A stretch of DNA of 64,000 nt, from NCBI GenBank assembly GCA_039621445.1, contig CP154954.1:36875703-36939702 (forward strand), read 5' to 3'. A program made the position numbers and the translations under genes. Each line of letters starts with the position of its first letter. Within the stretch, counting starts at the first letter, position 1. Positions 3,251 through 59,781 of this stretch are shown here, one piece after another. The notes beneath the pieces were generated by a model. That model was not told the origin of the DNA, did no database searches, and was given only the letters and a program-made list of their open reading frames with translations. Source of the DNA: Euglena gracilis. Taxonomy: Eukaryota.

Positions 3251-3481
3251 CGGATGGGGGGGGGAGGGGTGCACGGGGGTTTGCCAAGAAAATTTTCTTT
3301 GGCGGGCCTGACATTGCGTGGCGAGGGGGTCTGAAAAGGGGGGGGAGGGGGGGGGTAAAATGGCGTGGCGAGGGGGTTGGTGAGGGGGGGGGGGAGGGGT
3401 GTGCCGACCCCCCGGTGTTTGTCCTCCCTGACAGGTAGTTGCAGATCCCTAACAGACCCATTTTGGGGTTTTGGCCAGAAG

Positions 3482-3647
3482 CAGGGGTTTCTTTTTAATC
3501 TTGGACCCCCGGGGAGGGGGTAGGTGGCCCCCAGGGGAATATTTTTGAAAAGGTGCTATTTTCAGCATTTTTGCGATTTTTAGCCATTTTTGGGGAAAAG
3601 TGAGTGGGTCCCCTGGGACCTCCCCGGTCTTTTAAAAAAAACCCCTG
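3482..3647. mobile_element. hAT-like MITE family A
   Basis: TIR CAGGGGTTT/AAACCCCTG, perfect 8-bp TSD gccagaag. Confidence 0.9.
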
Positions 3648-4130
3648 GCCAGAAGTGTCCACCGAGGAATGGCGCGCCCCTGCCGCAGATCTCGCCCATC
3701 GACAGCAGCCTGGCCAACACGTTGGCGTGGGCAGCGGTGGCCAGCACCTACGGCTGGCTGTGGGTGACTACCTCCGCCCACGGCTGCTGGGTGCCGCGCC
3801 GCTGCCCATGCTCCGCGGTTGGGGGGCTTTTGCCCTGGGTGTATGGTCTTGAAAACCGTTTTTTTGGGAACGGTTTCTGCTAAAACCGGTTAATGTCAGT
3901 CGATTTTCAAGACAGGTGTCGGGTGAGATTTAAACACATATGGACTTTTCGTGAACTCTGATACGAAAACTGTGTCCAGAACGCCGGTTCGGGCGTGAAG
4001 CCGTGTTCCAGAACGCCGGTTCGGGCGGCAGCCCGAACCAGCGTTCTGGACACTACACAAAAATCGTCCATGTCACCCGGACACACCGTGTGTCCGGGTT
4101 ATGGGCGCCGAATGGATGGACGATTTTTGT

Positions 4131-5159
4131 CTATATCCGTTGACTAAGAGGCCCAAGACACACACTGTGTCTCGTGGAACTTAGCCACGCAATGTCTACC
4201 CCGTATTTTTTTGCGATTTTTTGTCAAATTTTCAGTTCACGAGGACACACACTGTGTCTCGTGGACTGCCAGTCCACGAGACACAGTGTGTGTCCCAGTC
4301 CACGGGGACACACACTGTGTCTCGTGGACTGCCAGTCCACGAGACACAGTGTGTGTCCTCGTGAACTGAAAAAATCAAGAATTCCCACTGGTCCGACCAA
4401 CAAGTGCCCCCCAATAACTTGGCCTTTCGGCAACTTTTGGCTTAGAGCATAAAGGTTTCTCGTGGACAAGTTTTACCACATTCCACTACCTGTCCTTGCA
4501 GTTTTTTCTTTCGGAAAATGAAGAAGACCGCAAACAGTGTGGACCGCATGCTCCCCCGACCCCCGAAACCAGATGAATTTGTTGCTACACTGGAAAAGTA
4601 TTTGGTCGATTTGCAGAAGGGCCCTGCTGTTGACCCAATACACGGTACGTTGTTGGCCAACGTGTTGGAAGAGAAGCCAAAAGGGACCGCAAAGGCTGAG
4701 CGTGTAGCTGTTACACGCCTGTTGGAGTTCCAGCAGGTGTGTAAACATCTGAACGCTCAGTATGAGGACCTGGATGGCTTTTTTTCCGCATGGGCTGGTT
4801 GGGTCATTGACCCCAGATATTTGTTTGATGAGGCTACCCTCATCAATCAAGCTCAGCAACAACGCCGCGCCAACTGTCTCTCAGCTGTTACAGCTCACGG
4901 TTGTCCGGTGACCATCTTTCCACTGCCCTGCTGCATTGCATTAGATGTAGAACACCTCGCATTTCTGGCAAACACCTTTTATTTTTCAGTCCACGAGACA
5001 CAGTGTGTGTCCCAGTCCACGGGGACACACACTGTGTCTCGTGGACTGCCAGTCCACGAGACACAGTGTGTGTCCCAGTCCACGGGGACACACACTGTGT
5101 CTCGTGGACTCAGTCCACGAGACACAGTGTGTGTCTTGGGCCTCAGTCCACGGATATAG
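4131..5159 (+). mobile_element. TIR element with subterminal hairpin arrays and an internal orphan ORF (4518 to about 4975)
   Basis: About 45-bp TIR ctatatccgt...gacacacactgtgtctcgtgga, about 62-bp self-complementary repeats on each side, protein-like ORF. Confidence 0.7.
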
Positions 5160-7551
5160 TTGTTGAAACCGTGGATTAGGGGCTCTGGCTTCACGCCCGA
5201 ACCGGCGTTCAAGGAATGCAGGCCAATTTCGGCCTAAATACCCCCCCCCCCCTAATTGACCGTGGGACCTCTCCAGGGGACCCCCCTTTTGGTCAATTAG
5301 GGGGCAGGGTTCGATATAAGGACAGGTGGGGGGGTGGTCCGACCCCCCCCCCCTGCGGGCCAGGAGGGGGGGGGGGGGGGGGGACACCCCCCCCCCACCT
5401 AAACAGGTGCGCGGTCAGGGTGGCCGAATTTTCGGCCCGGCGCGAAGCGCCAGGCCGAAAATTTTTGACCCCCCAAAACGACCAAAAGTGCCATTTTGGG
5501 CACTTTTTGGGCAAAAATGTGCCAAAAATGCAAAAAATTTTCGGCGCGAAGCGCCGGAGGAAAAAATTGACCCTTTTTGGGGGGGGTCAATTTTTTGCCC
5601 CCGAGGGTCGGTCCGGACCCCCCTTGCAGGTGGGGGGTGGTCCGGACCCCCCCCTGCGGGCCAGGAGGGGGGGGGGTGGGGGGGACACCCCCCCACCTAA
5701 ACCATGTACGCCCTCCTTATATCGAACCCTGTTAGGGGGGGGGTTCAATTAGGGGGGGGTTGGTCAATTAGAAGGGGGGTACCGTCAATTAGGGGGTGCT
5801 TCAGCACGGAATCCCCCCGGGCAGTCAATTAGGGGGGGGGTGAAAAAATTTTCCCCGGGGCGTTTGGTCAATTAGGGGAGGCATGTCGATCGGCCGATTG
5901 AAGTTTTCACTGGTCTGGTGCCATATCACCCATCGATCGAAAGCTCTTCTCAAGGGCTTTTGGTAGATGGCCACAGGATTCAGCCATTATGCACACAGCG
6001 CTTATTTTCAGCGATCGTTCATTCCAAAATTTGACATCTTAATTTGTGAAATCCCACACCTCAGGTGCCATACAGCATATCAATTGAAAGCTCTCGCCAA
6101 GACCTTTCATTTGGTACCCTCAGAACTCAGCTACACTGCAGAGCACTCTGAAAATGGCGATCGCAATTGCCGACCCTGTTTGCAAAGTCGAATTTCCTAT
6201 GTTTCACCAGCAATGTTGCCCATCGATCGAAAGATCTTCTCAGGGGCTTTCAGCAGATGGCCTTAGATTCCAGCCGTGCTGCATGGTGTTCTACTTCAAA
6301 AATTCCCCAAATTTGGCCAAATGGAAATTGTTGCACAAAGTACCCCAATACCCCCCAAAAACTGCTGGCCAAATACCCCCCAAAAACTCAACCTGTCCAG
6401 GTTTTGGCCTGGAGCCCTCAAAAAAGTTTGCCCAAAGGTCTCTAGTACAAAAAAGAGGTGTCGGACGCCGGTTCTGTCCAAAGCCCGGCGTTCCAAACGC
6501 CGGGCTTTGGACAGAACCGGCGTCCCCACCCTTCGGCCAAAGGACACTCCCGGGACCAATCTCCGACCACTGATCTGCAATGTCACACCACTTTGCACTT
6601 CACCAAATTCCGGCGATCGCGAGGGTATTTCTGGCTGTGTCAATCGTCCAGGTATAAAATCACCCCTCGATCGAAAGCTCTTTTCATCAGACGACTGGCG
6701 ATCACCACCAAATTCAGCCACGTCGCCTGGAGCTCTTATTTTCTGTCAGTGGGGAATCCTAATTTCACAACTCTGGTGCCCCCCCAAGGCCCTCAGGTCG
6801 TTGATTTGAAGAGGAAAAACGTTTCTGTAAGGTTTATTAAGCATCTTAAACCAAAAATCGCTAAAAATTGCGACAAATTTCGACTCAGATTCTGGCCGAT
6901 CCGACGATCGCGAGCGTATCTCGGGCTGCGTGCAACGTTACGGTACCAAGTTACCCCTCGATCGAAAGCTCTTTTCAACAGACGACCAGCGGTGCTCATT
7001 AGATCTTTCCACGCTGCACGGTACTCTATTTCCAAATCTGGGCCAATTTTCACCAAATTTGGATATCCACCCCAGTGGTCCCCAGATGGCAAAATTCATT
7101 GTCCTTGATGGTCGAAACACTCATATCACCACCTTAGGGCCACTTTTGGGCACTTTTGGTGCTTTTAGGAATGAAAATTGGACGCCGGGCTTTGGACAAA
7201 GCCGGCGTTCCTAACGCCGGGCTTTAGGACAGAACCGGCGTCCGGAAGCCCCTGGGGGGGGGGGACGCCGGTTCTGTCCTGAGCCCGGCGTCTCAAACGC
7301 CGGCTTAAATTTTTTTGCACTGCGCCCCAAAAATACTTGCACTTTGTTCCAAAAAAATTTGCACTTTGCCATTTAAACCGGCGTTTGAGACGCCGGGTTC
7401 AGGACAGAACCGGCGTCCCCCCCCCCCCACGGGTTTTCCGGACGCCGGTTCTGTACTAAAACCCGGCGTTAGGAACGCCGGTTTTGTCCAAAACCCGGCG
7501 TCCGGTTTTCATTCCTAAAAATGTCACCAAAAGTGCCCAAAAGTGACCCTA

Positions 7552-8037
7552 CAGTCCCTCGGCGTAAATTTTCCCCCCCCTAGGGAGGGGTTTTTGGGCT
7601 CTTGACCAGGGGGGGGGGAAATTTTCGGCCGTTTCGGGCACTTTGTCCCGTCCCTTCTATTCTTTGAAGCCATGAAGCCGACCGGCATTCGGAATTCATT
7701 TGCCGTATGTTGTGGGGTTGTTATGGTATATTCCCGAACACCTCTGTTCAGGGCGGTGGGTCTTATTGATAGATACATGCCGGGGATGGTTCAATGGACA
7801 AAAAACCCAAAAGATGCCAAGTCCTCGACCCAGGGGCCATGCAAGTGGTGAAGCTGTGCTGCCCTTGCATGTACACAAAAAAGTCCCAACCCACCTGCCT
7901 TAGCTGTTCCTCTGGGGCTGAAGGGGGGGGGGGAAAGTTTTCGCCTGTTTCGGAGCCTTTTGCAAAACCAGGAAAATTCCCAAATTTCAGGGGGGGGGAA
8001 ATTTTCGGGGGGGGGGACAATTTACGGCTAGGGACTG
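7552..8037. mobile_element. Tc1/mariner-like MITE
   Basis: TIR CAGTCCCT...CGTAAATT/AATTTACG...AGGGACTG, flanked by TA on both sides. Confidence 0.85.
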
Positions 8038-8592
8038 TAAGGTGCTGGTATGACTGTTTCAACCATCAAGGACAATGAATTTTGCCATCTGGGGACCAGT
8101 GGGGTGGATATCCAAATTTGGTGAAAATTGGCCCAGATTTGGAAATAGAGTACCGTGCGGCGTGGAAAGATCTGATGAGCACCGCTGGTCGTCTGTTGAA
8201 AAGAGCTTTCGATCGAGGGGTAACTTGGCACCCTAACGTTGCACACAGCCCGAGATACGCTCGCGATCGTCGGACCAGCCAGAATCTGAGTCGAAATTTG
8301 TGGTTATTTTCAGTGATTTTTGGTTTAAGATGCTGAATAAACCTTACAGAAACGTTTTTTCTCTTCGAATCGACCACCTGAGGGGTCCTGGGGGGTACCA
8401 GAGTTATGAAATTAGGATTTCCCAGTGACAGAAAATAAGAGCTCCTGGCGGCGTGGCTGAATTTGGTGGTGATCGCCAGTCGTCTGATGAAAAGAGCTTT
8501 CAATTGAGGGGTGAGTTTGTACCAGGACGATCGACACAGCCAGAAATACCCTCGCGATCGCTGGAATTTGGTGAAATGCAAAGTGGTGTGAC

Positions 8593-9033
8593 CAGGCTTT
8601 TGCTTAAGGACCCCCGGGGGGGGGGGGTACTGGCTAGCCAATCGGCTAGACACTGGAAAAAGTGGACTAGCTAGACCCCCCCTCCCCCCCGGGGGGGGGG
8701 GGTCCGGGGGTCCCCCGGACTGGAAAAAAAAATTTTCCTCCGGCGCACAGCGCCGGAGGAAAAATGAGGTTTTTAATAGGTTTTTGGCTGATTTTGTTCC
8801 AAAAATTTCAAAAAATGGCTAAAAACGGGCATTTTTGGCCATTTTTGGGGGTCCCAAAAAAAATTTTCGGCGCTTCGCGCCGGTCACTGGAAAAATTTTT
8901 TCCACTAGCTAGCCCTGCTAGCAGACCCCCCCCGGGGGGGTCTGCTAGAAAACCCACTAGCCAAATTTGGACTAGCTGCAGTCCAGCCCCCCCCCCCCCG
9001 GGGGGGTACTGCAATCCCTTAAGCAAATGCCTG
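8593..9033. mobile_element. hAT-like MITE family B nested in a foldback arm
   Basis: TIR CAGGCTTTTGCTTAAGG/CCTTAAGCAAATGCCTG, perfect TSD ggtgtgac. The empty site is visible in the opposite arm near 6582. Confidence 0.92.
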
Positions 9034-9823
9034 GGTGTGACTTTGCAGATAAGTGGTCGGGGATTGGTCCTGGGAGTGTCCTTTGACCGAAGGGTGGGGA
9101 CGCCGGTTCTGTCCTGAACCCGGCGTCTCTAAAACGCCGCTTTAAACAAGGGGTGGCGGACGCCGGTTCTGTCCAAAACCCGGCGCCGGTTCCGTCCAGA
9201 ACGCCGGGTTTTGGACAGAACCGGCGTCCGCCACCCCTTTTTTGATACTTTTGTCCCAAAAAAAAGCCTTACACTATAGGTACACTCCGGTTGAAGTTTA
9301 AAAAGGCAATTGTGCAAAACACCCAATCCAAGGGCAAAAAAATTCGGAACGAATGCTTTTGGAATGTGCAACCATTTTTGAGGAAAAGTGCGAACAAATT
9401 GGTGGTATGTGCAAACATTTTTGAGATTAAGTGCAAGAAAATTGACCGGAAGTGTAAAAGCATGCGGAGCGAAGTGCAAAAAAATTCGGTTGTTTGGTGT
9501 AAAAAATATTTTCTTAAAAAGGTATGTTTTTTAAAAAAACAAAAACAAACCGTCAACCTTGGCACTCGGCCGACTACCCACCACCCACTCCCCCTCCCAG
9601 TCGACTGTCTGGCACCCGTGCCGACCCCTCCCCCCTGTCCCTCCAATATGAAACACCCCCTCGGGAGCCAAAATCCTGAGGACGTTGCAGCTATGCCATG
9701 GTGTGGGGAATCGGTCTCAGCCAAAGCCCCCCCCCCCCCCCGCCGGCAAGGGGGTGCATGGGTGCATGTGGGGGGGGGGAGGTGATGGGGGGGGGGGGAA
9801 TGGACAACTGCAATGGTCTGGTC

Positions 9824-11339: not shown

Positions 11340-12301
11340 CCGTCGCAGGTGATTTTTTTCCCGGTCAGCAAGCGCCGGCAACCACCGTGCAGCCGCTGCA
11401 AGTGGTGGTCCTGTGCCAGTGCATCCAGCCACACCGGGGGGGGGGGAGCGGGCTCCCACGCGAGCGCCCGCGCGGGGGACGAGAATATTGCTTTAAAGAA
11501 CATGGCAGCAATGGAACACAAGAAGGTCACGAAGAACCAACCGGTATGTGAAGCCGCAGGATGGTTATTCAGCCCTCTGTCCTTCCATCCGTGGTCAGGC
11601 CTGGGCCCATTGGGGTCTGGTCTCCTTGGCCGTCTGGTGAAGCAAGCCCTTGGTGACAAGCAAGGATGGGCAAGGCAGCACATGGCCGCAGACATTTGGC
11701 AACGTATATCCGCAACCTTGATGGCCTTTGTGGCGGAACAGCTCTCTGCCGCAGCTACAACCAGAGGGCAAGAGGAGTTACCTCCAACAGCCACGCCGCA
11801 AGAGATGCCGTCGAGAACCAGGAGCATACAAGGAGCCACCGCAGTGGCGGCGGTGGACACGGAAGGATGGCAAAGAGTGCGTCACGCCGAGGATGGGACC
11901 CTAGTCGGCCCCATCCGCATCCAGTGCACCCGCCCGAGGTGAGACCCCTCGGAAGAGGACATGGTAGCACCATCTCCAACGCAAAAAAGAAAAAAATAGA
12001 AAAGGGCCCACACCCCTCTGGGTAAGGCCAGCGAGAATCGAAGTGAAACCGCCCAAGTGACAGGCGGGTGCAACGGCTCGCGGTGACCCGTCCCGACGGC
12101 AAAGAACAGCACGCCGACACGGGCGACACGCTCGCACGGGCGACGCGCGGGCACGACACGCGCGAGACACGTGCGAGCCGTGCCGAGCCGTGCCGAGCCG
12201 TGCCGAGCCGTGCCGAGCCGTGCCGAGCCGTGCCGAGCCGTGCCGAGCCGTGCCGAGCCGTGCCGAGCCGTGCCGAGCCGTGCCGAGCCGTGCCGAGCCG
12301 T
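11340..12301 (+). mobile_element. 3' end of a CRE-like RLE non-LTR retrotransposon with a 10-mer repeat tail
   Basis: Translation ...AMEHKKVTKNQPVCEAAGWLFSPLSFHPWSGLGP...WQRISATLM resembles the C-terminal restriction-like endonuclease region. UTR and (GCCGAGCCGT)n follow. Confidence 0.65.
12173..12301. repeat. (GCCGAGCCGT) x about 13
   Basis: Perfect 10-bp tandem array. Confidence 0.95.
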
Positions 12302-12835
12302 GGGGAGGCCAGCATTTTGAACCCATGGATCTGGATGGGTGGCAGCAAGAAGAAGAGCAAGGTGATGGGACAAATGTGGGTCCCATTCGCATTCAATGCT
12401 CCCGACCGCAGCAAGAGGAGCCCGGCAGGAGGTAGCCCCTCCAGCTCAGACACACACACACACACACACACACACACAAGGGAAAAAAAGACAAAAGGGC
12501 CCACGCCCCTCAGGGCAAGGCCAGCGAGAATCGAAGTGAAACCAAACAGTGACAGGCGGGTGCAACGGCTCGCGGTGACCCGTCCCGACGGCAAAGAACA
12601 GCACGCCGACACGGGCGACGCGCTCGCACGGGCGACGCGCGGGCACGACACGCGCGAGACACGTGCGAGCCGTGCCGAGCCGTGCCGAGCCGTGCCGAGC
12701 CGTGCCGAGCCGTGCCGAGCCGTGCCGAGCCGTGCCGAGCCGTGCCGAGCCGTGCCGAGCCGTGCCGAGCCGTGCCGAGCCGTGCCGAGCCGTGCCGAGC
12801 CATGCCGAGCCGTGCCGAGCCGTGCCGAGCCGTGC
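12302..12835 (+). mobile_element. Second, more 5'-truncated copy of the same retroelement family
   Basis: Peptide DGTNVGPIRIQC versus DGTLVGPIRIQC in copy 1, near-identical UTR, same 10-mer array. Confidence 0.65.
12664..12835. repeat. (GCCGAGCCGT) x about 17
   Basis: 10-bp tandem array with one variant unit. Confidence 0.95.
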
Positions 12836-46200: not shown

Positions 46201-46230
46201 ATTTGTGTTCCAACGTATTGGGACATTGAA
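46201..46230 (+). CDS. EF-hand protein micro-exon 9 (FVFQRIGTLK); no AG at the expected 5' boundary
   Basis: Consensus donor AA|gtaagt in phase 2. Aligns without gaps to FTSSRFGTNK in exon 13. Confidence 0.6.
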
Positions 46231-46759
46231 GTAAGTGAGAGTTGGTTTTGCACGGTGGGGGTCAGACCCCCCGGGGTTCCAGACCCTCTCCGTCCTGCTT
46301 TAGATTCGGGAGGGGGGGTCCCTGGAACCCAGAAAGTTTTTCTCTGGGGCAAACATAATTTTCTATTTTTTGCCTTCTTTCAAGGGTGCTAAATATACCT
46401 TTTCGCCTTTTTTTTCCAGCCCAAAAAGATTTTTTTTTTGGCAATTTGTTTTGTACAGGAGGAGGGGTAGGGAAGTCCCGAACCCCCTCCTCCCCATTGG
46501 GGTGGGGTGGCTTTTTTGAAGTGTTAAAATCCAGGCAAAAAACAGCTCAGTATTTCGGAAAGGATGATTAAAGTTGGATGTTTTCATTTTGACTAGACAA
46601 AAGCCTTTTTGCGGGAATGTCCCAAATGTACGTCCAAGAAGCATAATGAACAGAAGTTTGCTGAAGGGCCCACATTTTGGGACATACCCAAAGATGCCCA
46701 AGCAGGGTGTCTCTTAAGCCAAGTTTGCATTTTCTGTTTCTTTTTCTAAAAATTGGCAG

Positions 46760-46793
46760 GGATACACTGCCTCAGGATGAAAGACAGACAGGA
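46760..46793 (+). CDS. EF-hand protein micro-exon 10 (DTLPQDERQTG)
   Basis: ggcag| and |gtttgt boundaries, phase 2 to 0 bridges its neighbours, supplies the DxxxxG half-loop. Confidence 0.5.
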
Positions 46794-48020: not shown

Positions 48021-48155
48021 TTTCTCTTAAAAATCGTGGGATTAAAGTCAGATTTCCTCCATGTTATTGTTTTGCACAACAACAACGTTCGTGTCAACTG
48101 GGAAGACATTCAATTGTTAGTTGATTATTTTGACACGAACAAGGATGGGCTGATT
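48021..48155 (+). CDS. EF-hand protein exon 11 (FLLK...SDFLHV...WEDIQLLVDYFDTNKDGLI); 3' boundary non-GT
   Basis: ctacag acceptor, clear EF motif DYFDTNKDGLI, followed by TCC TGA with no GT. Confidence 0.75.
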
Positions 48156-49255
48156 TCCTGATTGGGCTGTTTTGTTACTTTCTGAGGATATCAATCTTTG
48201 GCAAATGGAGCACACACGGACTAGACACAAGCTGCACACGCACACGCTTGCATGCGCACGCGCGCGCACGCACACTTGCGCAAACTCACATCCATGTGCA
48301 TAAATGCATGTGGACGTGTGTGCACACGTGCGCATTTGAACGCAAACACACATTTAGGTGCCGGCAAAGACACTCACAACCATCAGCCAGCCACCCACCC
48401 ACCCACTCATTTGCTACCCCCCCCAGGGTTGTTCAGAAGCTCCGCAGACATGAGGGTGGTGGTAGGGGGGGGGTCACCCCCCCTCCAGGGGGGTAAGGTG
48501 GTGGGGGGGTCCCCCACCCCCCCTCCTCCTCTGCGAGAGCAAAAAAAAATTCCTCCGGCGCTTCGCACCGGGTGTGTACTTTAAGACCCTCTTGAGTCTC
48601 AACATGGAATTTTGGCAAAATGGCCCAAATTGGCCGAAAAATGGCCGTAACTTGGGATGGGCGGGGAGTTGCGTGGAAATCAAAATACTTTTAGACAGGG
48701 CATTTTAAGGGCTTCAATTTAGGTCTCGAACATTTCCTTTGTTCCCCACCGTTTTTGAGAAATTTCAGAAAAATCGACCTTTTGATCCCAAAAAACGACC
48801 GAAATTTTCGGTGACCGAAAGCTGGAGGTAGGAGGGGGGTCGGTCCCCCCCCCTCCGAGATTCCCACACAACTCTGCCCCTCCCCCCCGGCGCTTGGCCC
48901 CACTCCTTCTTGCATGCAAATTTGCCCCCTAAAGTTTGGCCTTCGGCCTTTTGCACATGGCCGCCAAAATTTTCAACGTGCAAACTTGGCCCCCATAAAA
49001 TTGGCCCAGTATTAAGTGAGCGGTGGTTTTGCAGGGGGGGCACCCCCTCCTCCCCCCCCAAACCAAGGGGGGTCTGGGAACCCAAAAAAAATTCCGGCGC
49101 GAATAGCTGGAAACGATGAAAATTTTGGTGTGCATTTTGACCGATTTTTCAAGAAGGTGCAGGAAAACGCGACTTTTGGGCCATTTTCAAGGCCGACAAA
49201 AATTTTCAAGGTAAAAATTTACAAAACTTTTTATGAAGGTAGCTTTTTGAATTCA

Positions 49256-49324
49256 AATTTTCAAGAATTTGTCAGGCTTGTTCATGGGCGGTCAAAGAGT
49301 CATCCAGGCATCAAACCAACGTCG
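49256..49324 (+). CDS. EF-hand protein exon 12 (NFQEFVRLVHGRSKSHPGIKPTS); 5' boundary approximate
   Basis: Completes the loop DTNKDGLINFQE and the exit helix. Donor |gtaccg in phase 0. Confidence 0.7.
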
Positions 49325-49921
49325 GTACCGGTTGGAAATCAAACACATTTCTTTGAGTATTCAGTGGATGGGCAATGTTCCAGCAATGCCAGAAATAATT
49401 TTCCCCGGGGTTGATTTTTTTTTTGCTGAGATTTCGAACTTCTTTTTTTTTTGCTCAATTTCGAATATTTTTCCAGGACCAATTTTTAAAGGTTTTCTAA
49501 GGTTCCTTTAGGCAATTTGTCCAATTTTTTTCAGTCTTTTTTAAAAAAATTTTGAAGGTTTTTTGAGGCGCCTTTTCAAAATAATGCCTGCTGGGGGAGG
49601 TACACATACAGCACCTCTTTCTGCAAAACACCATGTTATTGTCTTCCAACATAATCCCAGAAAATTTCTCTTGAAAATGATGGCCATTTGGGCCCCAGGC
49701 AAATTCTGACCTACTTTATGCTTTATCGTCAATTTGTGGTTTGCCAAAACTGACCCTTTTAAGCGACGCCTGACGCCAACTCTTGGGCTGTTTATGTCCG
49801 TTCAAAGGGCCATCGCCCAAAAGGTTGGAATTCACCAGATTTCAGGTAGGCTGAGCAACTGCATAATGCGGAGTCGTGTCTCATGAAACGTCACGGATAA
49901 TGTGAAAAAATGCTCCATAGG

Positions 49922-50262
49922 CATTGAATGTAACCCCCTCAAATAAGAGACCCCCCGGTGTGTTATTTGGGCACTAGGGGGGGTGTGTTATTTGGGGGGA
50001 TGTGTTATTTTTACATGGAAAACCAAAGGAAAACAGGGGTGTGTGTTATTTGGGCGCCCGAAATCGGCCCCCGGGGGGGGGGTGTTATTTGGGGGGGAGT
50101 TATTTGGGGGGGGGTGTAATTTGGGGGGGGCTTTCGATGTTCAGCAATGCAGGTGGGGAATTTTTGTTTCAAATGTGACAGCTCGGATTAGCAAGATTAC
50201 ATTTGAGAGAATAATGGATGGTATTCTACATAGCAGCATTCTAAATGTCCTCCTCATGCAAA
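49922..50262. repeat. Dispersed repeat with an inverted copy at 63655-64000
   Basis: Near-identical reverse complement. Confidence 0.85.
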
Positions 50263-53200
50263 AATTTCCGTCCCAGCGCTTTGTGCCGGGCCGAATATCA
50301 TCACCTGGGCCGCCACTGTTTCGGTTGGGGGGTGTCAAAAAATGGCCTGGTTCTTTGGTAAAAAGTATTTCTTTTTTACAAATCGCTTATTTTTGAACTT
50401 TTTTTTTGCAATTTTCCTTTCCCAGCTCGATTTCGTTCCATCCAGGGACCCCCAGCTCCATTTCGGCAAAACAAATCCAAGAAAATTTGTGCACTCATTC
50501 ATCATTCATCACTCATTCATCATTCACCATTCATCCAGCAAACAAACGAGCACAGTGCTGAAATTTCAATTCAGAAGCAAATTTGATTTTGACCCAGAGA
50601 TATAGTTCCCTCTTGCGAGGGCGTCGCTTAAGCTGGAAGGTCCCCTTTCCTGGTGGGCCCCCTGGTCAACATCCTGGGGGGGGACCTGTCCAGCTGGCCA
50701 AAAGACAGCTGGAACAGATTTTTTTTTGGAGGTGCAAAAATAGGCCAAGGAAAGGGCAAAAAAGGGACGCAACCAGGTTGGTCATCTCAAAAATCCGGCA
50801 AAACTTCTGCACGTTTGGTGCAGTTTTGTTGAGGTTTTTCCTGCAGTTTCGATTTCTTTGAATTGGGTTCGACGCAGTTTCTGCCAGGGATCCCAGCCGC
50901 TTTTGGGGAGGGAGGGAGGGCTCAGCCAGCAGCCTTTTTTTTCCAGGCAGCCCAAGTTTTCCATCTCTGGGCTGAACTCTTCCCAGTCACAAACCCATGT
51001 CTGTTGTTGCTTTTTTCCTCTCCTGCGATGGATCAAAGGACACCACAGCCCTGCAATGGGAAGAGTTTGTGCGGGGTATTCAAATGAACCGGTGGAACCC
51101 CCGTGGTGCTGGTGACAGCCGGGATACGCTTCTGCCCAAGCCATCTGTGGCCCCTGGTGCACGTGTGGAGGAACCTGGGCAGGGTGTGGCATTTGACACA
51201 TTTGCATAAAATCTTGAGTTTGACCACAACTGAAGGCCGCCGAAGGTTATAGAGGTCACCCAAAAAAATTATTTTCCCCCCAAATATAAGGCCTCCCCGC
51301 CAAATATAAAGCCCCCCCCCCCCTGAGGGTCTTGAAATCCCGTCCAAATACAAATCCGGGAGGGCTTTATATTTGGGAGGTTAGCATGCAATCCCCTGAC
51401 ACACTTCACCACCATTTTGAGCACAAAACCTCCAGTGCCTCTCGCACTTGAGCTTGCACATTTTCGCACATGTCGAAGAATTTGATTTTGGTGCCGTGGC
51501 AAATTGTCCATCAAATTGTCCTCCATGCCCCACTGATGTTTAAGACCCTGCGACATCCGCAAAACAACAAAAATGCATATGGACGGTGAACACACTCGTT
51601 CACACTGAAGAATGGAAATGGGGGGGGAGCCCTAAGCAGAAAGCAATGATAAGCAAATGTCATTTCCAGATGCTCACTTTGGAAAATGTGCAATTATTTA
51701 ACCCTCCCCTCTAATCGAAGCACGGGTGCGCTTATAGCGGACCGTCGACTCCGGTGGTGGTGCGCTTCATTTGGACCCTACCCGCGCGATTTTTGTTGAT
51801 TTCCTCTGGAAATCCCATCAAAATGGGGGGTGTGCTTGTGGTGGCGCTGCCTTTGGCGGCGTGGGCGCGCTTTTGTTTGGACCCTGCGCTTGTACGCCCC
51901 CGCGCTTCTATTAGGGGGGGGGGGTTTATCCAAAATGGAGCATTTCTGGTGGAAAAAAATTGTTGTATCCTTCTAAAAATTTTCAATGTTTTCCTGAATG
52001 GCAGGTCTTGGCCCACGCCAGTGGGGGGCATTATATTTTTTGGGCAAAACTAAACCAACCTCAGGGGGGATTTATATGTGGGGGGGGCTTTGTATTTGCG
52101 GTGGGTTTATATTTGGGGGTTTATGGCCCCATGAGCACGGTGGCTTGCAAGTCAGCTGACACCCAATGCACCTCATTTTCGGACAAAAATACTGGTGATG
52201 ATGCCCATTTTTAAACTCAGGTTTTCAGGAGGGAAAATTGAAAATGCAGTTTATTTGATGTGTCAGGGCTTTGATATGGTTTTTCACAGCTTCACCGATG
52301 TCCAAATTTGGGCCGAGATGGTCCTTTTGTTGTATTACATACCCAGCCTGTTTACGCAGTTGCACAAACGGTTGGTGTGGCAAATGCGCACACCGACCAC
52401 CAATTCTTCAAAAAAAAATCAAATTTCAGGGCGTCGTTTCAGGCTTAGTTTCACCTCACCAAATTGTCCCAGCAGCCCATGTTGATGAGGCAGCCATCTG
52501 AAGGCTGGGGGGAATTGATATCCGCATTTTTTTTTAAAAAAATACTGCAATTTCCGCAGTTTTCTGCAATTTTCCCACAATTTTTTTTTGCAATTTCCCC
52601 CCTTTCTGCAGTTTTTCCGCATGGATGATGGAAGGCGAAGTGGGTTTCGGCCATTTTTTGAACATTTCACAGGGGTACCCAGGCACTTTTTTTTTGTTAT
52701 TTTGTTGCAAATTTGCCAAAAAATTGCAAAATTTTACAAATTTTGACAAACGTGGGCAAATTTTTGGCCAGTTTTTAGGGTTTCCCCCAATTTCTGCTAC
52801 TTTGGACTTGAAGATTCCGAGTCCTGACCATTTCACCTTATACCAAAGTTTTCGGCAATTTTGCCAGCGTTTGATTTTTCACCAAATATTTCCAAATCGG
52901 CATGTTCTCAAAATTACAAAAAAACCTGTTTTTGGACTTTTTGTTTTTTTTTAAAAAAAGGTGAATAACAACCCAAATCTTACACCTATATTGCAAAATG
53001 ACCAATTTTTTCCAAGTCCCCTCCATCAGAAGTGTACAAATCCCCAAAACCGTAATGTCTACAATTTTTCGCAATTTATCTGCAATTCTTCCAATTGCCT
53101 CCAACCTCCATTCACCCCTGGCAAAGGTTCCAAACATGCCTGCTCAGGCACCCTAACCCAGGGTTCGATAAAAGGACTGCATACAGGGTTTGGGTGGGTG

Positions 53201-54898
53201 GGGTGTCCCCCCCCCCCCCCCCACCGGAGGGGGGGCTGGACCCCCCCACCTGTCAAGGGGGTGTGGACCGACCCCCGGGGAGACCCCCTCCAAAGAGGTC
53301 AAATTTTTCCTTTCGACGCAAAGCACCGGATTTTTTTTGCATTTTTGACTTTTTTTTTGCCTGAAAAGTGCCCAAATGGCACTTTTGGCTGTTTTTTGGG
53401 AAAAAGTTTCCGCCCGGTGCTTTGCGCTGGGCTGAAAATCAGTCACCCAGACCGCGCCACTGTTTAGGTGGGGGGCGTTCCCCCCCGGACTGGAGGAGGG
53501 TCCTGGGGCCCAACCTACCCACCCACTCTCGAAAACCCACCCGCCCACCCCCTGGGGGGTCACACAGGTGTTGTTAAGTGACTCAATTTATACCCAGGAC
53601 GCGGGGATGAAAGCAGGGAGATAGGGCAGGTTTCAAACTAAGGGCAGGTTGGGGTGGGTCGGATTGCAACATGGATCCAGTTTTTGCCCGGCCAAAGGCC
53701 GGGCCGGGAAAATTTTTCCAGCGTTTTTGGCTGGATTTTGGGTGGGTGGGTGGGTGGGTGATTGACTCCCGGGGGGGGGGGGGTTCAAAAAAAAGTGGGT
53801 GGGTGGGTTTGGGCCTGTGAAAATGTGCCTCCCCCCCATGGTCACTAAGTAAATCCATGGTCCCAGGGCACCACATCGCATCCTGATTGTGCAATTGGGT
53901 TTTTTGGGAGCCAAGCGTTGTCATTTTTAAAATATGTCAATTTGCGCAAATGCGAACATCGACAAATAATAATTCCTTAATTGCGAGATACACTTAAGGT
54001 CCAATTGCCTACCATTGAAGATAATTCTGCCAAAAAACGCCCAGGCAAAGTTGAGAATTGTTGGGCTGCACGTTTTTGGTTGTAATTTTTCTGCTTGGTC
54101 AAAACAACCAGGTCGAAACAGCGGGGCTGAAGAGGAGCATTCTGTTGTACCTCAGTTATCTGGTGCTGACAGACTGCTTAACTCTGGAACTGGATTTTTA
54201 ATTTTAATTAGATTTAATTGGAATGCGAGCTGATTTAAGGGGGGTGACGGTAAAGAGTTGATGAGCAGAACGATTGATATAATTTATCTGCCTACCCCCC
54301 CCCCCCCAAATGACATCCCCGGGGGGTTTGCCTTTGGTGCATTTTGGAATATTGGTATATTTTGGGTACATTTTTTCAACCTCAAAAATGAACATTTTTT
54401 GCATCATTTTTACACTTTATTCCACGTTGATATTGCCTCAAGTTTGGTGTAACAGTCATTTTTGCCAAAATATGCTGCTCGTGGAGGATATTTTTTTTTC
54501 AACTTTCTTCTTTGCTTTCTTTGGGGTGATGCAGGGGGGCGTATTGTTTTGAGCAGCTGAAGTCCTGGGCCAGGGGGGAGGGCATATTTTTGGGGTATAT
54601 AACTTGGGGGGTTTACATGTAAACTCCCCATTTGGGCGGTCTTGTACACTCGCCTAGAAGTTTGCTGGAGGTTAGCATAGTGCAAGGCTGAGTCAGGATT
54701 GTTTGTTTGTTGCTGATGATGAGGACGAAAGTGACGTTGAACAAGGAATCACAAAATGTGTGTCGAACACCTGAATAAATTTCTGGCCTCAGTTTCCCTC
54801 CACGCCATGTGCATGGCAGAAATCTATGTTGTGGAAATTGTCCACAATCTTGTTAATCAAACACATCTCTGCTTTGTATTGGTCTGTTTCCCCCAAAG

Positions 54899-55025
54899 TC
54901 AAATGCACATTCTGCAACCACTCCAAGTGTTTTGAACCGATTGCACCAGGACCTGCGAAGGTTCACATCATCCAGATTTGGCACAAATAAGGATGCTTTC
55001 TTGGCCCTGAACACTTCTCGTTCTG
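54899..55025 (+). CDS. EF-hand protein exon 13 (SNAHSATTPSVLNRLHQDLRRFTSSRFGTNKDAFLALNTSRS)
   Basis: ccccaaag| and G|gtgtgc boundaries. First half of the loop NTSRSG|AITKSE. Confidence 0.8.
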
Positions 55026-58000
55026 GTGTGCCTCTCGGCCCAACCAAAATGCATGGAAAGGTGTTGGAAGACCTCTTCCCCTCCTGGTGGGGATGTATCC
55101 AGCCTTCCGCCAGCCACCAGCCACTGGCCTCTGATAATGCAAACCCTTAGTCATTGCCCCCCCTGCTGGGGGTGGGGGTGAATGAGTGTGTTTATATATA
55201 TATGTATATATGCATATATATATGTATATATAGTGATTGACTGGATTTTGGCCCAAACTCCCACCTTCCCTGAGGTTCGGCAAGAAAGGCACCAAAGTGA
55301 CCAGGCGCCTAAGGCACGCTAAATAATTTTTGGTCCATTTTCTCCACATTTGTGGTCAATTCCTTTGGATTCCAGAGTGGAGACCCCCCCCCTCCCCCGG
55401 GGCCGGGGTGACTGACTGGTTTTCTGGAAAAAAGTGGCTGACTGGTTTAGGAAGAATGGAATCCAGGCTCAGCAAAAAAGATGCATGCCTCTGATCCAGT
55501 GGTGCAATACTTTTCCAGCTCAACTTGCTGGTTTTTTTAAAAAAAATAACTGAAACCTTCGGAAGATAAAAGGCAACAATAAGGCAGAAAGAAGACAAGC
55601 AAATCAGATTTTTTTTTGGCAAAGCTGACTCCCCAGATTCTTCTGAATCTTAAAATGTCAACGTTTTCCAACATCATTTTGGAGAATTGAGAGTGATGCT
55701 CACCGATCTACGTCCCATAATTTACAGCAAAATTGTTGACAAGTTTTGGCAAACAGGTCTGGCAGCTCCTCGGGGGATCTGCAGTGGCCATTCGCTTGTT
55801 CTATCTCATCCCCGCTCGTTCTAGCAAGTCTGGTTTTCAGAACAACTTGGGCTCATCATCATCAGCATCATCATCCTGGCACAGTTGTCTGAAAAATGAT
55901 TTAAACCTCCCAAATATTAACAACAGCTTGTTAAGTGTTGCTCACTTACGAGGCATAGTTTTAAAGCAGAATATTGTAGATTTGTCAGGCATTTTCAGGC
56001 ATTTTCTAACTTTTCAAAGGCATTTAAGGTATTTTTTTTTGCATTTTTTAAGGCATTTTCTGGGGATCGAATCGATGCCAATCAAAGTTAAAAAGTTGAA
56101 AATTTTATTTAGGTGGATTGATGATCCTGAGGTGGATAGACCAGCGATGCCAGAAATAATTTTTCCCCCTGAAGTTTGCCTGCTTTTGCCGAGATTTTGT
56201 GATTTCATCTTTCCTCTGCATCATGATGAATTTCTCAAGGCATTTAAATGCATTTTTGGCCAAAAAATGTAGGGCATATTTCAAGGCATTTTATTTAGAA
56301 TGCCAGAGTGACACTTAGGATTTTGGCCGGTTTGGGTGCATGTGCGAGTGAACTTACGACGTGCCCAAATGCTTCAATTTCCCATGTTCGAAACACTGTG
56401 CCGGACACCACCCTCGGACGTGTTACCCATGGCTACAGTGTCTCGGGGTTTGAACCTCGAGAAGTGCATCCAATGACACGGTTTTGTCACGTTACAGGGG
56501 TTGTCATGGCTCGTGTTTGAAACCTCGGCTGGCAAAAATGAAATCAGGAAATCACCCATCTCTCTCTTGGGGTTGAAGCGAATTTCTGCTGGTCGATATC
56601 GACCCCAGTGGTCGGCCCGACCAAGTGACGCCGACCTTGTCAGGGACCCCAGGATTGTCACCCCCAGGAACCTGCTCGGAGCCCTAGTTGCGAGCGAATA
56701 TCGTCTGCAACCACAAAAAAATCCATGGCTGATTTCCCGCAATGAGCCGATCGACACTAACAGTTGCAACATGGGAGGCTTGCTTTGGCGGCTGAGGGCC
56801 ATGCGTCCAACGCAGAAGAGGAGCTTTCAGTGGCCGGGCAAGACAAGTGCAAGACATGGGGTGTGCTGTGCAAGGTGCCGAGGTGACAGGTGTGGGAGGT
56901 TTCACTGCCGCAGGAGAATGGCTGGGGAGGGCCATTTCGGACATGGACATGGCAGTGGGGTCAGTGGTGTGCGACAGCGCTGGATGACGCCAGTCACCCT
57001 TTACGGCCCCAATTTTGGAACCCCTGGCAAAAAGCACAAAGCAAAGAGGCAGACACTGTCCCCAGTCACAGCACTGGGCAGCTGAGTCAAAATGAAAATA
57101 GCCTCGTTACACTGCTTTTATGCTGGGATGTCTGACTAATTTCAAGCACACATTCCTGAAATGTCGTCTCTCAATCAATCACTGCACAATACCATTTCAG
57201 GGCGAAGGGCAACCCACACCCAAACCCTTTGGCGTCAGTCGGCGTGTGTACCTGTTTGCGCGAGAAGATACGCGATCCCTGCCATATTACAGATCCTGGC
57301 ATGCACTGATGGACGCATCTGCGCGCGTTTGGGAAAACAGATGAAGACACCCCCAGCCGCAGCAGGATAAGCCGAGTGTGGGAAGCAGGGTAAGCCAAGG
57401 GAACCAAGAGTGTGGGACGTTTTCAGTGTGCAGCTCAATCAGGTTTAACACTCCTGTGTAACACGTTTTCAGAAATGCGAGCTTTCCCAGAGACCCCCCA
57501 ATCGTGTGCACATGTGCACGACCCCGGCCACCAAAGACCTCTCTTCGTGGCCAACGCCAATTTTTCAATGACGGCTTTGTCTGTTTGAAAGCACCTCAGC
57601 ACCATTTCAGTCATTAACCCCTCTGACAAATTTCAGTCATTAACCAATGTGTACATGAGTCCATGTGTCCTCCCCAACTGCCCTGTGGCACCTGATGGAT
57701 GCTCGCAGTTGCCGTAACCAGAAAAATACTCCTTTCTGCCGCGACCACCAAGGATTTTTTTTGCGACTGGCTGCATCCCGGCCGCATCCCATTGTTTGTT
57801 GTGCGCCACATATGCACCATGGCACGAGCGCTGTGTGTCGATGCACCAGCACACTGCAGTGATGCAAGGCCCCACAATGTCATCCGGGTTTTTTGAGGTT
57901 GGACCTGGAGGGGGGGCTGTTGTTAAACCACCAATTTGGTTGTTTCTCCAACCCAAAATTGATTCTAGGGAGCTTTTTTCAAATAATATTGATTCTCTCA

Positions 58001-58688
58001 GCGGGGAGAAAGGCTTCAGCATAAATTTTCATTTAAGTAACAGATATAAAAAAAATTTAAAATTTTCAATGATAGTTTCTCTTGCCGTCACAGTGTTTCT
58101 CTTTAAATTATTTCAGAAGGTTTTTTTTGAAAGTTTGTGTTATTTGTGTTTGGCAAAAGTGAAAAGTGAGAATAAACAGTTGCAAATATAATTTGCTTTT
58201 TCGAAAAAAATTGAATGCAAAAGTTAACTTCTCGAAGAATCAGTTCCCTCAATAACAATTTACCGAAATTTTTCTGCAATTTTGTCAATCTGTCAAAAGC
58301 ATGAATAATCATCCATGATTAAATACATTCATATTTTTCAGGTACCTGTTCCATCACCATTTCTTTCAACAGCGAAACAGAGAAGCAGGAATTGAAAATA
58401 ATTTTTGAGTTCATTTTTTTGAAAAAATGTCGATCATTTTGACGTTTTCGGCCATTTTGACGTTTTCATGACGTCCATCGTGACGGTTTCGGCCATTTTC
58501 GGCCGAAATCGGCTGCGCCGGCGCTCCCAAAACGAGCGCTCTGCCCCGGCTAGAGGTCGGCGATCCTTTACCTAACTGTTGCGAAGGGCGGCGGGCGGAT
58601 AGCCGCAATTTTGCCCGCGGTGGGCGTGCGTAAAACGCAGCCGTTATCGCCCGGGAAGTTTTGACGATGATTTCAAGGGTGTCCCATA

Positions 58689-58947
58689 CAGGGGTTTTTT
58701 TAGTCGTGGACCCCCGAGGGGGGGGGTAGGGTGGGTGGGTCCGGCCGAGCCCCCCCCCTTCGGGGGGACCCCCCGGAGGGGGGTGGGATATACTTTTCGG
58801 CGCCGCAGGCGCCGAAAAATGCTATTTTTAGCACTTTTCGCGATTTTTCGGCCATTTTTTGTGGGTCCCCCGCCCCCCCCCCCCCCCCCCCCCGGGGGGG
58901 GGTGGGGGGGTGGGGGGTCCCCCCCCCCGGTCTTAAAAAAACCCCTG
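58689..58947. mobile_element. hAT-like MITE family A
   Basis: Same TIR, perfect 8-bp TSD gtcccata. Confidence 0.9.
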
Positions 58948-59781
58948 GTCCCATAACAACCCAACAGGGCGTCGCTTAAGGACCCTCCCAGAGAGGAGTC
59001 CTCCAGGTCCTTCAGACCTGGAAATTTGGACTGGCTGAAAAAAAGCTGTTGGGTGCCCCCCCCCCCATGCAGACCCTCTGCCCATGTTGGAGGCCGTCGC
59101 TGAAACTTTGTCCAGGCGATGTCCACATGTGCGCAACCATTTTAGGCTATTTTCTATTTGCTTTTGTTTTGGGGGCTATTTTTGGCCATTTTTTGATTTT
59201 TTTTGGCAAATTTGGCTCACGTTGGGTTATTCTGAGCCACAGTCATTTTGGATCAATGTTGGCCTTTTTGGTAATTTTTGGTCACTGTTGGCCAAAAATT
59301 TTGGGGGGGCAATCAGCTGTCATTTTGGTCATTTAGGCCATTTTCCATCGCAGTGTCCTCCAGGTTTGCGGAAAATGACCGAAAATGGCCAGTCAAAACT
59401 GTCCTAAAAAGTTCTCAAAACTGGTCTATAATGGCACCAAAATGGGCAGAAATGGTCCCAAAATGACCCAAAATGGGTTGAAATGATTTGAACATTTCCA
59501 AATATGGTCCAATTTTTTTTGGAAAAGTCGCATATTTCCGCTTATTTTTCCGCATATTTAGCCCATATTCCAGCGTATTTTAGCGCATATTTGGGGGCCG
59601 TTTGCCGTTTTGTGCTTATCCCCCCCGGTTAAACCTGGTTGAATTTCTTTGGATGAAGGGGAAATTTGGGCGTTTTTTGAAAAATGTCAATCAGCGTCAT
59701 CTGATGGTTTTTGGATTTCATTTTTTTGTTGATCTTTGTTGATGGGTGTGGCTGGCTTTGCCAAATGCGCATGCCTATCAG

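Follow-up and report, generated by a model that had tools for sequence, protein, structure and literature searches.

The nonconventional introns of euglenids (Milanowski et al. 2014, 2016; Nomura et al. 2025) carry CAG(G) and (C)CTG at the ends of a paired body. Their consensus, CAG(G)/(C)CTG with Y|R at both junctions, is accompanied by a downstream exon with A at position 2 in 43/55 and C at position 3 in 30/55 (PMC4770533). The splicing code was formulated as N3-CDG...CH'G-N5-6|R, i.e., a strict 3-nt spacer at the 5' side and a spacer of 5 nt, with 6 tolerated, at the 3' side, where CAG/CTG and pairing are both required, and fully synthetic 50-bp inserts obeying this code were spliced out of an exon (PMC12501133). 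Direct repeats were present at the junctions of 84.4% of introns and were set aside in the same study. Repeats resembling target site duplications (TSDs) at the junctions and the release of the introns as circles with full-length ends have also been described (PMC11282704). In one strain of E. agilis, a newly acquired nonconventional intron showed direct repeats of eight nucleotides at its junctions, which its authors attributed to double-strand-break repair (PMC4770533). The transposon theory of these introns was posed as a question (PMC6221363), and their origins are still described as unclear (PMC12501133).

Among transposons, MITEs of the hAT superfamily (Ac/Ds, hobo, Hermes type) are non-coding and multi-copy, with 8-bp TSDs and short inverted ends that begin with CA(G). 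The hAT target preference is nTnnnnAn, and the duplication is 8 bp (PMC10368747, PMC2803484). The introners of Micromonas, Aureococcus and dinoflagellates follow the principle that TIR/TSD insertion geometry sets the splice boundaries and gives seamless removal; they use the spliceosome, with the TSD supplying part of their GT/AG-type sites (PMC11282704). In E. gracilis itself two Merlin families are known, both with 8-bp TSDs, and Merlin ends carry terminal 5'-GG on long inverted repeats (PMC8101967).

The elements of the present locus share with nonconventional introns the CAG(G)...(C)CTG ends of the paired body, the start of pairing at the terminal C and G, and the size range, and the 3 + 5 nucleotides flanking the intron body equal the 8-bp TSD of the elements. 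Unlike the nonconventional introns found beside them, they keep intact 8-bp direct repeats. With hAT MITEs they share the 8-bp TSD, the short inverted CA(G) ends, the non-coding nature and the multi-copy state; the target preference is only weakly visible in them, and their interiors are made of homopolymer and shared-module hairpins. They resemble introners in principle and differ in a putative removal by the non-spliceosomal, structure-measured euglenid route, and they share with Merlin the 8-bp TSD and a euglenid genome but start with CA.

Elements and Target Site Duplications

The window, i.e., the whole 64,000-nucleotide stretch of Euglena gracilis DNA that was analysed, contained six elements with perfect 8/8 TSDs and inverted ends matching from 10/10 up to 18/18. 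They are non-autonomous DNA transposons of the cut-and-paste kind, with TIRs directly abutted by TSDs. Four of them (E1 to E4) had been listed by the original prediction, and their positions, ends and perfect 8-bp TSDs were all verified in the sequence. A whole-window scan added two more, E5 and E7.

E1 (3482-3647) is a 166-bp MITE with the ends CAGGGG...CCCCTG and the TSD GCCAGAAG at 3474-3481 and 3648-3655. E4 (58689-58947), a 259-bp MITE, also has the ends CAGGGG...CCCCTG, and its TSD GTCCCATA lies at 58681-58688 and 58948-58955. Both were placed in family A together with an older copy (939-1226, no strand), the flanks of which, GCTCCACT and GTTTCAGT, match at 5/8 positions. E2 (8593-9033) is a 441-bp MITE of family B with the ends CAGGC...GCCTG, i.e., CAGGCTTTTGCTTAAGG / CCTTAAGCAAATGCCTG, and the TSD GGTGTGAC at 8585-8592 and 9034-9041. 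TSD length is unambiguous for E2 and E4.

Family D is represented by E5 (5305-5731), a 427-bp MITE with the end CAGGGTTCGATA paired at 12/12, the inverted repeat CAGGGTTCGATATAAGGA, and the TSD TTAGGGGG at 5297-5304 and 5732-5739. Its second copy, E5b (21724-22533, minus strand), is approximately 90% identical to E5, and its flanks match at 5/8. An insert of 373 bp (21865-22237) nested in E5b is bordered by the palindromic 8-mer GGGTACCC; it was not counted as an element, because with a palindromic flank a TSD and an extension of the repeat are indistinguishable. A diverged partial copy (53159-53486, minus strand, 77% identity over 359 columns) was found inside the nonconventional intron 51177-54919. 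E7 (17052-17398) is an AT-rich MITE of 347 bp with the ends CATAGTTGGC...GCCAACTATG, paired at 10/10, and the TSD ATGCCAGG at 17044-17051 and 17399-17406. E3 (44395-46165) has the ends CAAGCACCTCTG / CAGAGGTGCTTG, paired at 12/12, and the TSD ATGGGAGG. At 1771 bp it is not miniature, and its interior consists of tandem arrays of 10-mers and 18-mers. The other five elements measure 166-441 bp. G/C homopolymer hairpins and a common hairpin module, TTTTCGGCGC...GCGCCGAAAA, were found in the interiors of the elements, and the two ORFs overlapping E3 and E4 gave no Pfam match.

The elements had been assigned to three families, and this number had to be revised to five in the window, i.e., E1/E4/939-1226, E2, E3, E5/E5b/53159-53486 and E7, where families A and D have three copies each. 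In the DNA-like run X20, the word depth of the 594-base bin containing E4 was 191,819, compared with approximately 38-51 for single-copy contigs, which suggests a genome-wide copy number in the thousands. When metagenomes were scanned with the 16-base end of family D, 117 stretches were returned (80 retrieved as loci), each with one match and none with an inverted pair. We estimate that chance alone would yield at least as many in so large a collection; no euglenid copies were gained, and the loci were left out of the analysis.

Insertion Site of E2 and Chance Controls

Insertion of E2 is proven by a paralogous uninterrupted site. A long inverted repeat carries the element in its right arm, and the other arm of this repeat, the left one, reads through a single GGTGTGAC when reverse-complemented (6582-6589, minus strand). 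The left flank of E2 matches 6731-6582 and the right flank 6589-6486, with an overlap of exactly 8 bases, and the gap in the alignment of the filled and empty sites is 449 columns, i.e., 441 + 8, so that the boundaries are unambiguous. The empty site shows that these 8 bp were part of the target before insertion; their duplication is the hallmark of DNA integration at a staggered cut. Within the window, none of E1, E3, E4, E5 and E7 had a paralogous empty site.

Chance was excluded as the source of the TSD-flanked elements. Inverted repeats beginning with CA, seeded by 7 exact nt and allowed up to 3 mismatches in 14, formed 423 pairs. Their flanks were compared in register over 8 nt, and the numbers of pairs with 0 to 8 identical positions were 76, 105, 124, 67, 37, 6, 3, 0 and 5. 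In all, 418 pairs stand at 0-6/8, none at 7 and five at 8, and the five are E1, E5, E7, E3 and E4. E2 is absent from this set only because its seed contains one mismatch. First-order Markov copies of the window (30 simulations) gave a mean of 0.4 matches per window against 12 observed, of which six are the present elements and the remainder come from palindromic arrays. A control with displaced inverted repeats was discarded as uninformative, since it re-detected the same long inverted repeats.

EF-Hand Gene and Nonconventional Introns

An EF-hand protein gene was recognized on the plus strand at 47123-59976, with exons at 47123-47223, 48069-48158, 51057-51176, 54920-55024 and 59781-59976, located via EF-hand motifs. 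The last exon contains the stop codon, and an upstream exon ends at 43158. Pfam assigned EF-hand_7 to 59733-59945 (E = 1.4e-09). In the Pfam search of 36 window ORFs, four EF-hand pieces were matched, together with one sub-threshold pentapeptide-repeat match. The final coding exon, used as query in a protein search of longer proteins, gave no match, a GC3/coding scan gave no codon-bias signal, and Rfam had no match in the whole window. The stranded run X24 is consistent with plus-strand RNA for the gene.

RNA reads divided the introns of the gene into four without GT-AG and one with it. The joints of the nonconventional introns were present in two raw RNA runs (X21 and X24, taken by species label) and in a contig set, X1, that we guess to be RNA-like, and were absent in the DNA-like run X20. 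That the organism does use euglenid nonconventional introns, as had been presupposed, is shown by RNA within the window. In the first intron (43159-47122, plus strand), GT-AG is absent in all four registers, as the junction slides by 3. Its putative junction was placed from a 30-nt loose end at 47123 that maps to 43129-43158, with no spanning joint, and it does not fit 3 + 5. The second intron, I1 (47224-48068, plus strand), has ATT as N3 and TTATT as N5, and the next exon starts with G; its junction cannot slide, and a perfect 13-bp inverted repeat, CATGGAGGAAATC / GATTTCCTCCATG, extends from +4 to -6. Its joint was supported by 129 reads in X21, 33 reads in X24 and one contig in X1, with none in X20. 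The third intron (48159-51056, plus strand) is bordered by TG..AA with a junction that slides by 2, and its helix GGGCTGT / ACAGCCC has a spacing of 5 + 5, or of 3 + 7 once slid, which also does not fit 3 + 5. The fourth, I3 (51177-54919, plus strand), reads GGG-CAG...CTG-CAACC|A and is an exact fit to the published code, with a joint supported by 87 reads in X21, 31 reads in X24, one contig in X1 and none in X20. In two of the four, an inverted repeat lies exactly at +4 to -6. The conventional intron (55025-59780, plus strand) has GT..AG when the cut is moved by 1.

In this window the copies are insertions of the usual kind, in intergenic or intronic DNA, and not introns themselves. RNA read placement covered E3 and E4 of the six elements. 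E3 was found within the larger intron 43159-47122 and E4 within the GT-AG intron 55025-59780, which bears out the caveat of the original prediction that an exonic position was not proven for its four copies. Neither of these two lay between exons or was seen removed from RNA as a unit at its own boundaries, and RNA depth was very low; among 15 joints listed (335 further), none removes E4 alone, and the RNA depth at E4 was approximately 0.2-1. It had also been noted that the candidate introns of this DNA retain no in-register TSD. This held for the four nonconventional introns, the flanks of which match at 2-5/8 with approximately 2 expected by chance. In contrast to the multi-copy elements, I1 appears to be single-copy; most of it is covered by one DNA-like contig with a depth of 38, so that it does not belong to any high-copy family.

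Element Ends and the Splicing Code

The earlier argument that 3 nt before and 5 nt after the paired body add up to one TSD copy is arithmetically correct, and the code it relies on has an experimental basis (PMC12501133). E1, E2, E4 and E5 have the sequence part of the code, i.e., CAG/CTG and a purine at TSD position 6, while the ends of E3 (CAA/TTG) and E7 (CAT/ATG) do not fit CDG/CH'G. All elements (6/6) have a purine at TSD position 6; this position is the prospective start of the downstream exon, where the code demands a purine as first base. In predicted RNA folds of N3 + element + N5, the bases from +4 onward pair with those from -6 backward. This pairing was predicted in both orientations for E5, E2 and E4, on the plus strand for E1 and on the minus strand for E7.

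Origin of the Introns

We consider it probable, at roughly 0.6, that hAT-like MITEs with CAG...CTG ends and 8-bp TSDs reside in the nuclear genome and that their exonic insertions are seamlessly spliced and become nonconventional introns. An insertion would yield X1-8 [CAG...CTG] X1-8, and the two element ends would pair in the transcript. The nonconventional splicing machinery would then cut 3 nt upstream and 5 nt downstream of the helix. Because such a cut would remove the element together with X6-8 and X1-5, i.e., one TSD copy, the message would be restored exactly, whichever strand carries the element. Exonic insertions would then be near-neutral and could become nonconventional introns, and the intronic half of the TSD would decay afterwards. 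The elements are a plausible source of introns, and they may be active and intron-generating, as the original prediction proposed.

The hAT-like label refers to the 8-bp target duplication and the inverted ends starting with CA(G): the TSD is 8 bp in 6/6 elements, and the starts are CAG in four, CAA in one and CAT in one. No transposase domain was found by Pfam in 36 of the 167 window ORFs that reach 110 aa. hAT ends are short inverted repeats starting with (C/T)A(G/A), and CAG-type ends with an 8-bp TSD form the usual hAT picture. CAT, the start of E7 and of I1, falls outside this consensus and is the start of P-element ends. The hAT target preference is weakly visible, with T2 in 4/6 and A7 in 2/6 of the TSDs, i.e., 6/12 against 3 expected in six elements only. 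From these points and the two Merlin families of E. gracilis, one may argue that the elements belong to another superfamily with 8-bp TSDs, such as Merlin, P-like, Mutator-like or an undescribed group. We regard this as rather unlikely. Merlin ends carry terminal GG (PMC8101967), whereas all six elements start with CA at a boundary that is fixed by the empty site of E2, and the combination of CAG-type ends with an 8-bp TSD is typical of hAT (TSD and target: PMC10368747, PMC2803484).

The likeness of elements and introns may also be a coincidence of form, in which ordinary MITEs stand beside nonconventional introns that arise by break-repair filler DNA or by conversion of conventional introns. 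Transposons commonly have CA(G) ends and 8-bp TSDs, no exonic or self-spliced copy was seen among the joints listed, the nonconventional introns of this gene have lost any TSD and are apparently single-copy, and the introns at 43159-47122 and 48159-51056 do not fit 3 + 5. Break repair was the explanation proposed for the 8-nt repeat in E. agilis, and from the same report (PMC4770533) it can be reasoned that a preference for Y|R at the two junctions would be enough to increase the frequency of junction repeats. A coincidence would nevertheless have to account for three independent matches, i.e., the CAG(G)/(C)CTG triplets, the pairing from the exact element end, and 3 + 5 as the length of the TSD. 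Moreover, synthetic sequences with these features alone are spliced (PMC12501133), and the sole intron known as recently gained has the 8-nt repeat (PMC4770533). We judge coincidence unlikely for these reasons. The direction may further be reversed, with excised circular intron RNAs copied into DNA and seeding the "MITEs". The release of nonconventional introns as full-length circles (PMC11282704) would suit such a route, which we hold to be very improbable, since the 8-bp duplication is particular to each copy and made up of target sequence at its site, the 8 bp were already in the target at the E2 empty site, and a copied circle would bring along the 8 nt of its source.

Significance of the Elements

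Earlier literature already contains the proposed MITE origin of nonconventional introns, their TSD-like repeats, the rule of 3 + 5 spacers and an 8-nt repeat where an intron was newly gained. Our literature search turned up neither a description of Euglena MITE families with such ends, nor their placement in hAT, nor a reading of the 3 + 5 spacing as one TSD; the supplementary junction data of PMC12501133 and PMC4770533 may hold relevant numbers. With concrete families in the genome that are bounded by CAG...CTG and by exact duplications of 8 bp, the transposon hypothesis becomes directly testable.

Tentatively, and at somewhat less than even odds, the insertion of such MITEs into exons can be extended to the splicing pathway as a whole. 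The 3 + 5 rule would mirror 8-bp staggered integration at the RNA level, the pathway would exist to undo CAG...CTG MITE insertions exactly, most nonconventional introns, which make up approximately 70% of those in Euglena, would be former insertions, and families like the present ones would still supply introns. Then the Y|R of the junctions would be inherited from the duplicated target, the A2/C3 of the downstream exon would be target-derived and resemble the Hermes-type target nTnnnnA(C), and the excised circle would carry one reconstituted TSD between inverted ends.

If exonic insertions of these elements are indeed spliced out as proposed, Euglena would have a dedicated splicing pathway that renders transposon insertions in exons harmless, and this would explain the dominance of this intron class in Euglena genes.

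Elements with eight-base duplications

Six elements with perfect 8-bp target-site duplications (TSDs) were found in the window. Four had been noted before, and inspection of the sequence bore out their coordinates, ends and TSDs, i.e., E1 (3482-3647, CAGGGG...CCCCTG, TSD GCCAGAAG), E2 (8593-9033, CAGGC...GCCTG, GGTGTGAC), E3 (44395-46165, CAAGCACCTCTG...CAGAGGTGCTTG, ATGGGAGG), and E4 (58689-58947, CAGGGG...CCCCTG, GTCCCATA). A scan of the whole window for an 8-mer direct repeat directly adjoining a 12-nt inverted repeat added E5 (5305-5731, starting CAGGGTTCGATA, TSD TTAGGGGG) and E7 (17052-17398, starting CATAGTTGGC, TSD ATGCCAGG). The scan gave 12 matches vs. a mean of 0.4 in Markov-simulated windows; six were the elements, and the remainder were by-products of palindromic arrays. 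For every CA-starting inverted-repeat pair in the window (n = 423), the 8 bases outside both ends were also scored for identity. The pairs with 0 to 8 matches numbered 76, 105, 124, 67, 37, 6, 3, 0, and 5, i.e., a chance-like hump near 2 and an isolated spike at 8. E2 was missing from these pairs solely through a seed mismatch.

The strongest single evidence for a real insertion is the empty site of E2. A long inverted repeat (arms 6582-7136 and 8038-8592, 93% complementary) carries the element in its right arm. The opposite arm, reverse-complemented, runs uninterrupted across one single GGTGTGAC. The left flank of E2 maps to 6731-6582 and the right flank to 6589-6486, and these two matches share exactly 8 bases. 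The gap in the alignment measures 449, i.e., 441 + 8, and the adjoining bases allow no boundary shift. E2 is therefore a true insertion with 8 bp duplicated and ends of exactly CAGG...CCTG. Its insertion postdates the divergence of the two arms. The foldback is large (6463-9243), with complementarity extending past the insertion and more internal inverted repeats at 7163-7520.

When the elements were compared with the window by BLAST, five families were recognized instead of the three originally proposed. One comprises E1, E4, and an older copy at 939-1226 (flanks 5/8 matching). E5 has a minus-strand copy at 21724-22533 (approximately 90% identical, flanks 5/8 matching) and a partial copy at 53159-53486 (77% identical); E2, E3, and E7 stand separately. 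The "young" perfect-TSD copies are accompanied by these decayed ones. The minus-strand E5 copy carries a nested insert of 373 bp (21865-22237, ends TCACCCCCCCC...GGGGGGGGTGA). Its flanking 8-mer, GGGTACCC, is palindromic, so a TSD and an extension of the inverted repeat are indistinguishable there. The interiors of E1, E2, E4, and E5 have common modules, i.e., a TTTTCGGCGC-loop-GCGCCGAAAA hairpin, GCCATTTTTGG-like motifs, and G/C homopolymer hairpins adjoining the ends (e.g., 8727-8765, 8864-8885, 58796-58820, and 5430-5470), which suggests shared ancestry or modular exchange.

Other repeats were observed in the window. A long-inverted-repeat element at 1992-3214 has 178-nt arms (99% complementary) separated by 867 nt, with 3.5 copies of a 110-nt tandem repeat (2360-2738) between them. 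At 4229-4372 and 4987-5135, self-complementary 63-nt units (CAGTCCACGAG...) are repeated in tandem in two opposed blocks with approximately 640 nt between them; the whole (4229-5135) resembles an element whose inverted ends are long and composite. Near-perfect arrays of the 10-mer CGTGCCGAGC were found at 12170-12302 (13 copies) and 12662-12835 (17 copies), approximately 360 nt apart; both lie within the longest ORFs of the window, which have no Pfam family. Just upstream of E4, the sequence 58487-58656 falls in a bin (58080-58673) with a word depth of 3.6 million in the DNA-like contig set X20, vs. approximately 40-50 for single-copy contigs. Reads of the size-fractionated RNA run X24 cover it on both strands, those of the RNA-seq run X21 scarcely at all, and Rfam gave no match.

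Superfamily

The hAT picture is an 8-bp TSD with CA(G) as the terminal consensus. The TSDs and CA(G) ends found here agree with the hAT-like label originally given; no transposase domain was found in 36 ORFs of the window. The hAT target pattern is only weakly visible in the six elements (6/12 positions vs. 3 expected). From these sequence features, "hAT-like" is a reasonable label, which does not in itself demonstrate membership. Merlin elements of E. gracilis are described with 8-bp TSDs and GG ends (PMC8101967). The TSD length is common to both, whereas the GG ends are absent from the elements here.

Introns of the EF-hand gene

A plus-strand gene was indicated by EF-hand motifs in short ORFs (Pfam). 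RNA-like contigs (X1), DNA-like contigs (X20), and raw RNA-seq reads (X21 and X24) were mapped on 46200-64000. Among the joints listed, four had RNA support and were absent in X20, i.e., 47223>48069 (intron I1, 47224-48068; ends AT..TT, slide 0; 129 X21 and 33 X24 reads), 48158>51057 (I2, 48159-51056; TG..AA, slide 2; 90 and 28), 51176>54920 (I3, 51177-54919; GG..CC, slide 0; 87 and 31), and 55024>59781 (GT..AG with a shift of 1, slide 2; 96 and 45). The sequence of a loose end at 47123 matches 43129-43158, which points to a further intron, I0 (43159-47122), whose junction is inferred from these 30 letters. The joined exons form a single open EF-hand protein terminating in the last exon. Four of the five introns are non-GT-AG; nonconventional (NC) introns are thus present in this organism, and the objection that it might lack them fails.

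A further splice, at 59976, follows the stop codon, and the intron from 59977 begins GTGTGC. The next exon, seen as a loose end, is outside the window, so this 3' UTR intron extends beyond the window end. EF-hand-like ORF pieces on the plus strand upstream, at 23601-23984 (Pfam E = 3e-4) and 42489-42698 (E = 1.4e-6), may belong to this gene as earlier exons or represent a paralogue next to it. At 48119, A>G relative to the window was found in X1 and X20 contigs, 86/126 X21 reads, and 24/40 X24 reads. Because the DNA-like run also has it, RNA editing was ruled out in favour of a difference between strains or alleles.

E3 lies inside I0 and E4 inside the conventional intron 55025-59780, so neither is exonic, in keeping with the original caution that the copies were not shown to be so. 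Among the 15 joints listed, with 335 more beyond the list, none excises E4 alone, at an RNA depth of approximately 0.2-1. No copy was seen acting as an intron among the joints listed for 46200-64000.

Fit to the splicing code

The published code is 5'-N3-CDG...CH'G-N5-6|R, with pairing following the triplets (PMC12501133). The 5' spacer tolerates no change, and the 3' spacer has its optimum at 5. Fully synthetic 50-bp inserts bearing only the code features were spliced from an exon, and splicing was abolished once pairing was removed (PMC12501133). The CAG/CTG triplets are present in E1, E2, E4, and E5; E3 (CAA/TTG) and E7 (CAT/ATG) fall outside the triplet rule. When each element was folded with 3 nt before and 5 nt after it, pairing from +4 onward with -6 backward was predicted in both orientations for E2, E4, and E5, in the plus orientation for E1, and in the minus orientation for E7. 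At TSD position 6, where the downstream exon would begin, 6/6 elements have a purine; on the opposite strand this role falls to position 3, with a pyrimidine in 3/6. Taking the predicted folds, four of the six elements fit the published sequence and structure code.

It had been proposed that 3 nt before plus 5 nt after the inverted-repeat body equal one TSD copy, so that splicing restores the pre-insertion sequence in either orientation. The arithmetic is correct. Such cuts remove the element with TSD bases 6-8 and 1-5, so the message regains bases 1-8, and, the structure being symmetric, this holds on either strand.

Two of the four NC introns (I1 and I3) match the element layout precisely. 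I1 is ATT + CATGGAGGAAATC...GATTTCCTCCATG + TTATT, then G, and its +4 to -6 body is bounded by a perfect 13-bp inverted repeat; I3 is GGG + CAG...CTG + CAACC, then A. The I2 helix has 5 + 5 or 3 + 7 spacing, and the I0 helix has neither spacing. This proportion is in line with the 61.2% of NC introns reported to fit the code (PMC12501133). None of the four keeps an in-register TSD (2-5/8 matches vs. approximately 2 by chance), as originally cautioned. One DNA-like contig of depth 38 spans most of I1, so I1 is not currently in a high-copy family. In predicted duplexes, the exon ends around I1 (47214-47223/48069-48075), I2 (48149-48158/51057-51065), and I3 (51167-51171/54920-54924) pair mutually past an internal loop containing both cut sites. 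This pairing is not supplied by the TSD model, and it may be selected or chance.

Origin of nonconventional introns

A MITE-like origin of NC introns was proposed in 2014 (PMC3935182) and restated later (PMC6221363, PMC12621601, PMC12501133). A 2024 review describes inverted repeats at +4..+6 and -8..-6 and TSD-like junction repeats (PMC11282704). A gapC NC intron recently acquired by one E. agilis strain has eight-nucleotide direct repeats at its junctions, ascribed by the authors to break repair (PMC4770533). Genome-wide in E. agilis, junction direct repeats occur in 84.4% of introns and were set aside as "slidable" (PMC12501133). The NC consensus has Y|R at both junctions, with A at position 2 (43/55) and C at position 3 (30/55) of the downstream exon (PMC4770533). 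The Hermes-type target is nTnnnnAn (PMC10368747, PMC2803484), and Y|R with downstream A/C might be the expected remnant of its duplication. The literature searched gave no genomic Euglena MITE families with these ends, no placement of such MITEs in an 8-bp-TSD superfamily, and no statement equating 3 + 5 with one TSD; supplements of PMC12501133 and PMC4770533 may bear on these points.

In short, these are genuine transposons, present in multiple copies and with 8-bp TSDs, and their host genome uses NC introns. As a putative source of such introns they would form a coherent picture with the published experiments and one published recent gain. The composite explanation, i.e., real transposons, an NC-intron-using genome, and the elements as intron source, is given a probability of roughly 0.6. 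These families make the MITE-origin hypothesis for NC introns directly testable.
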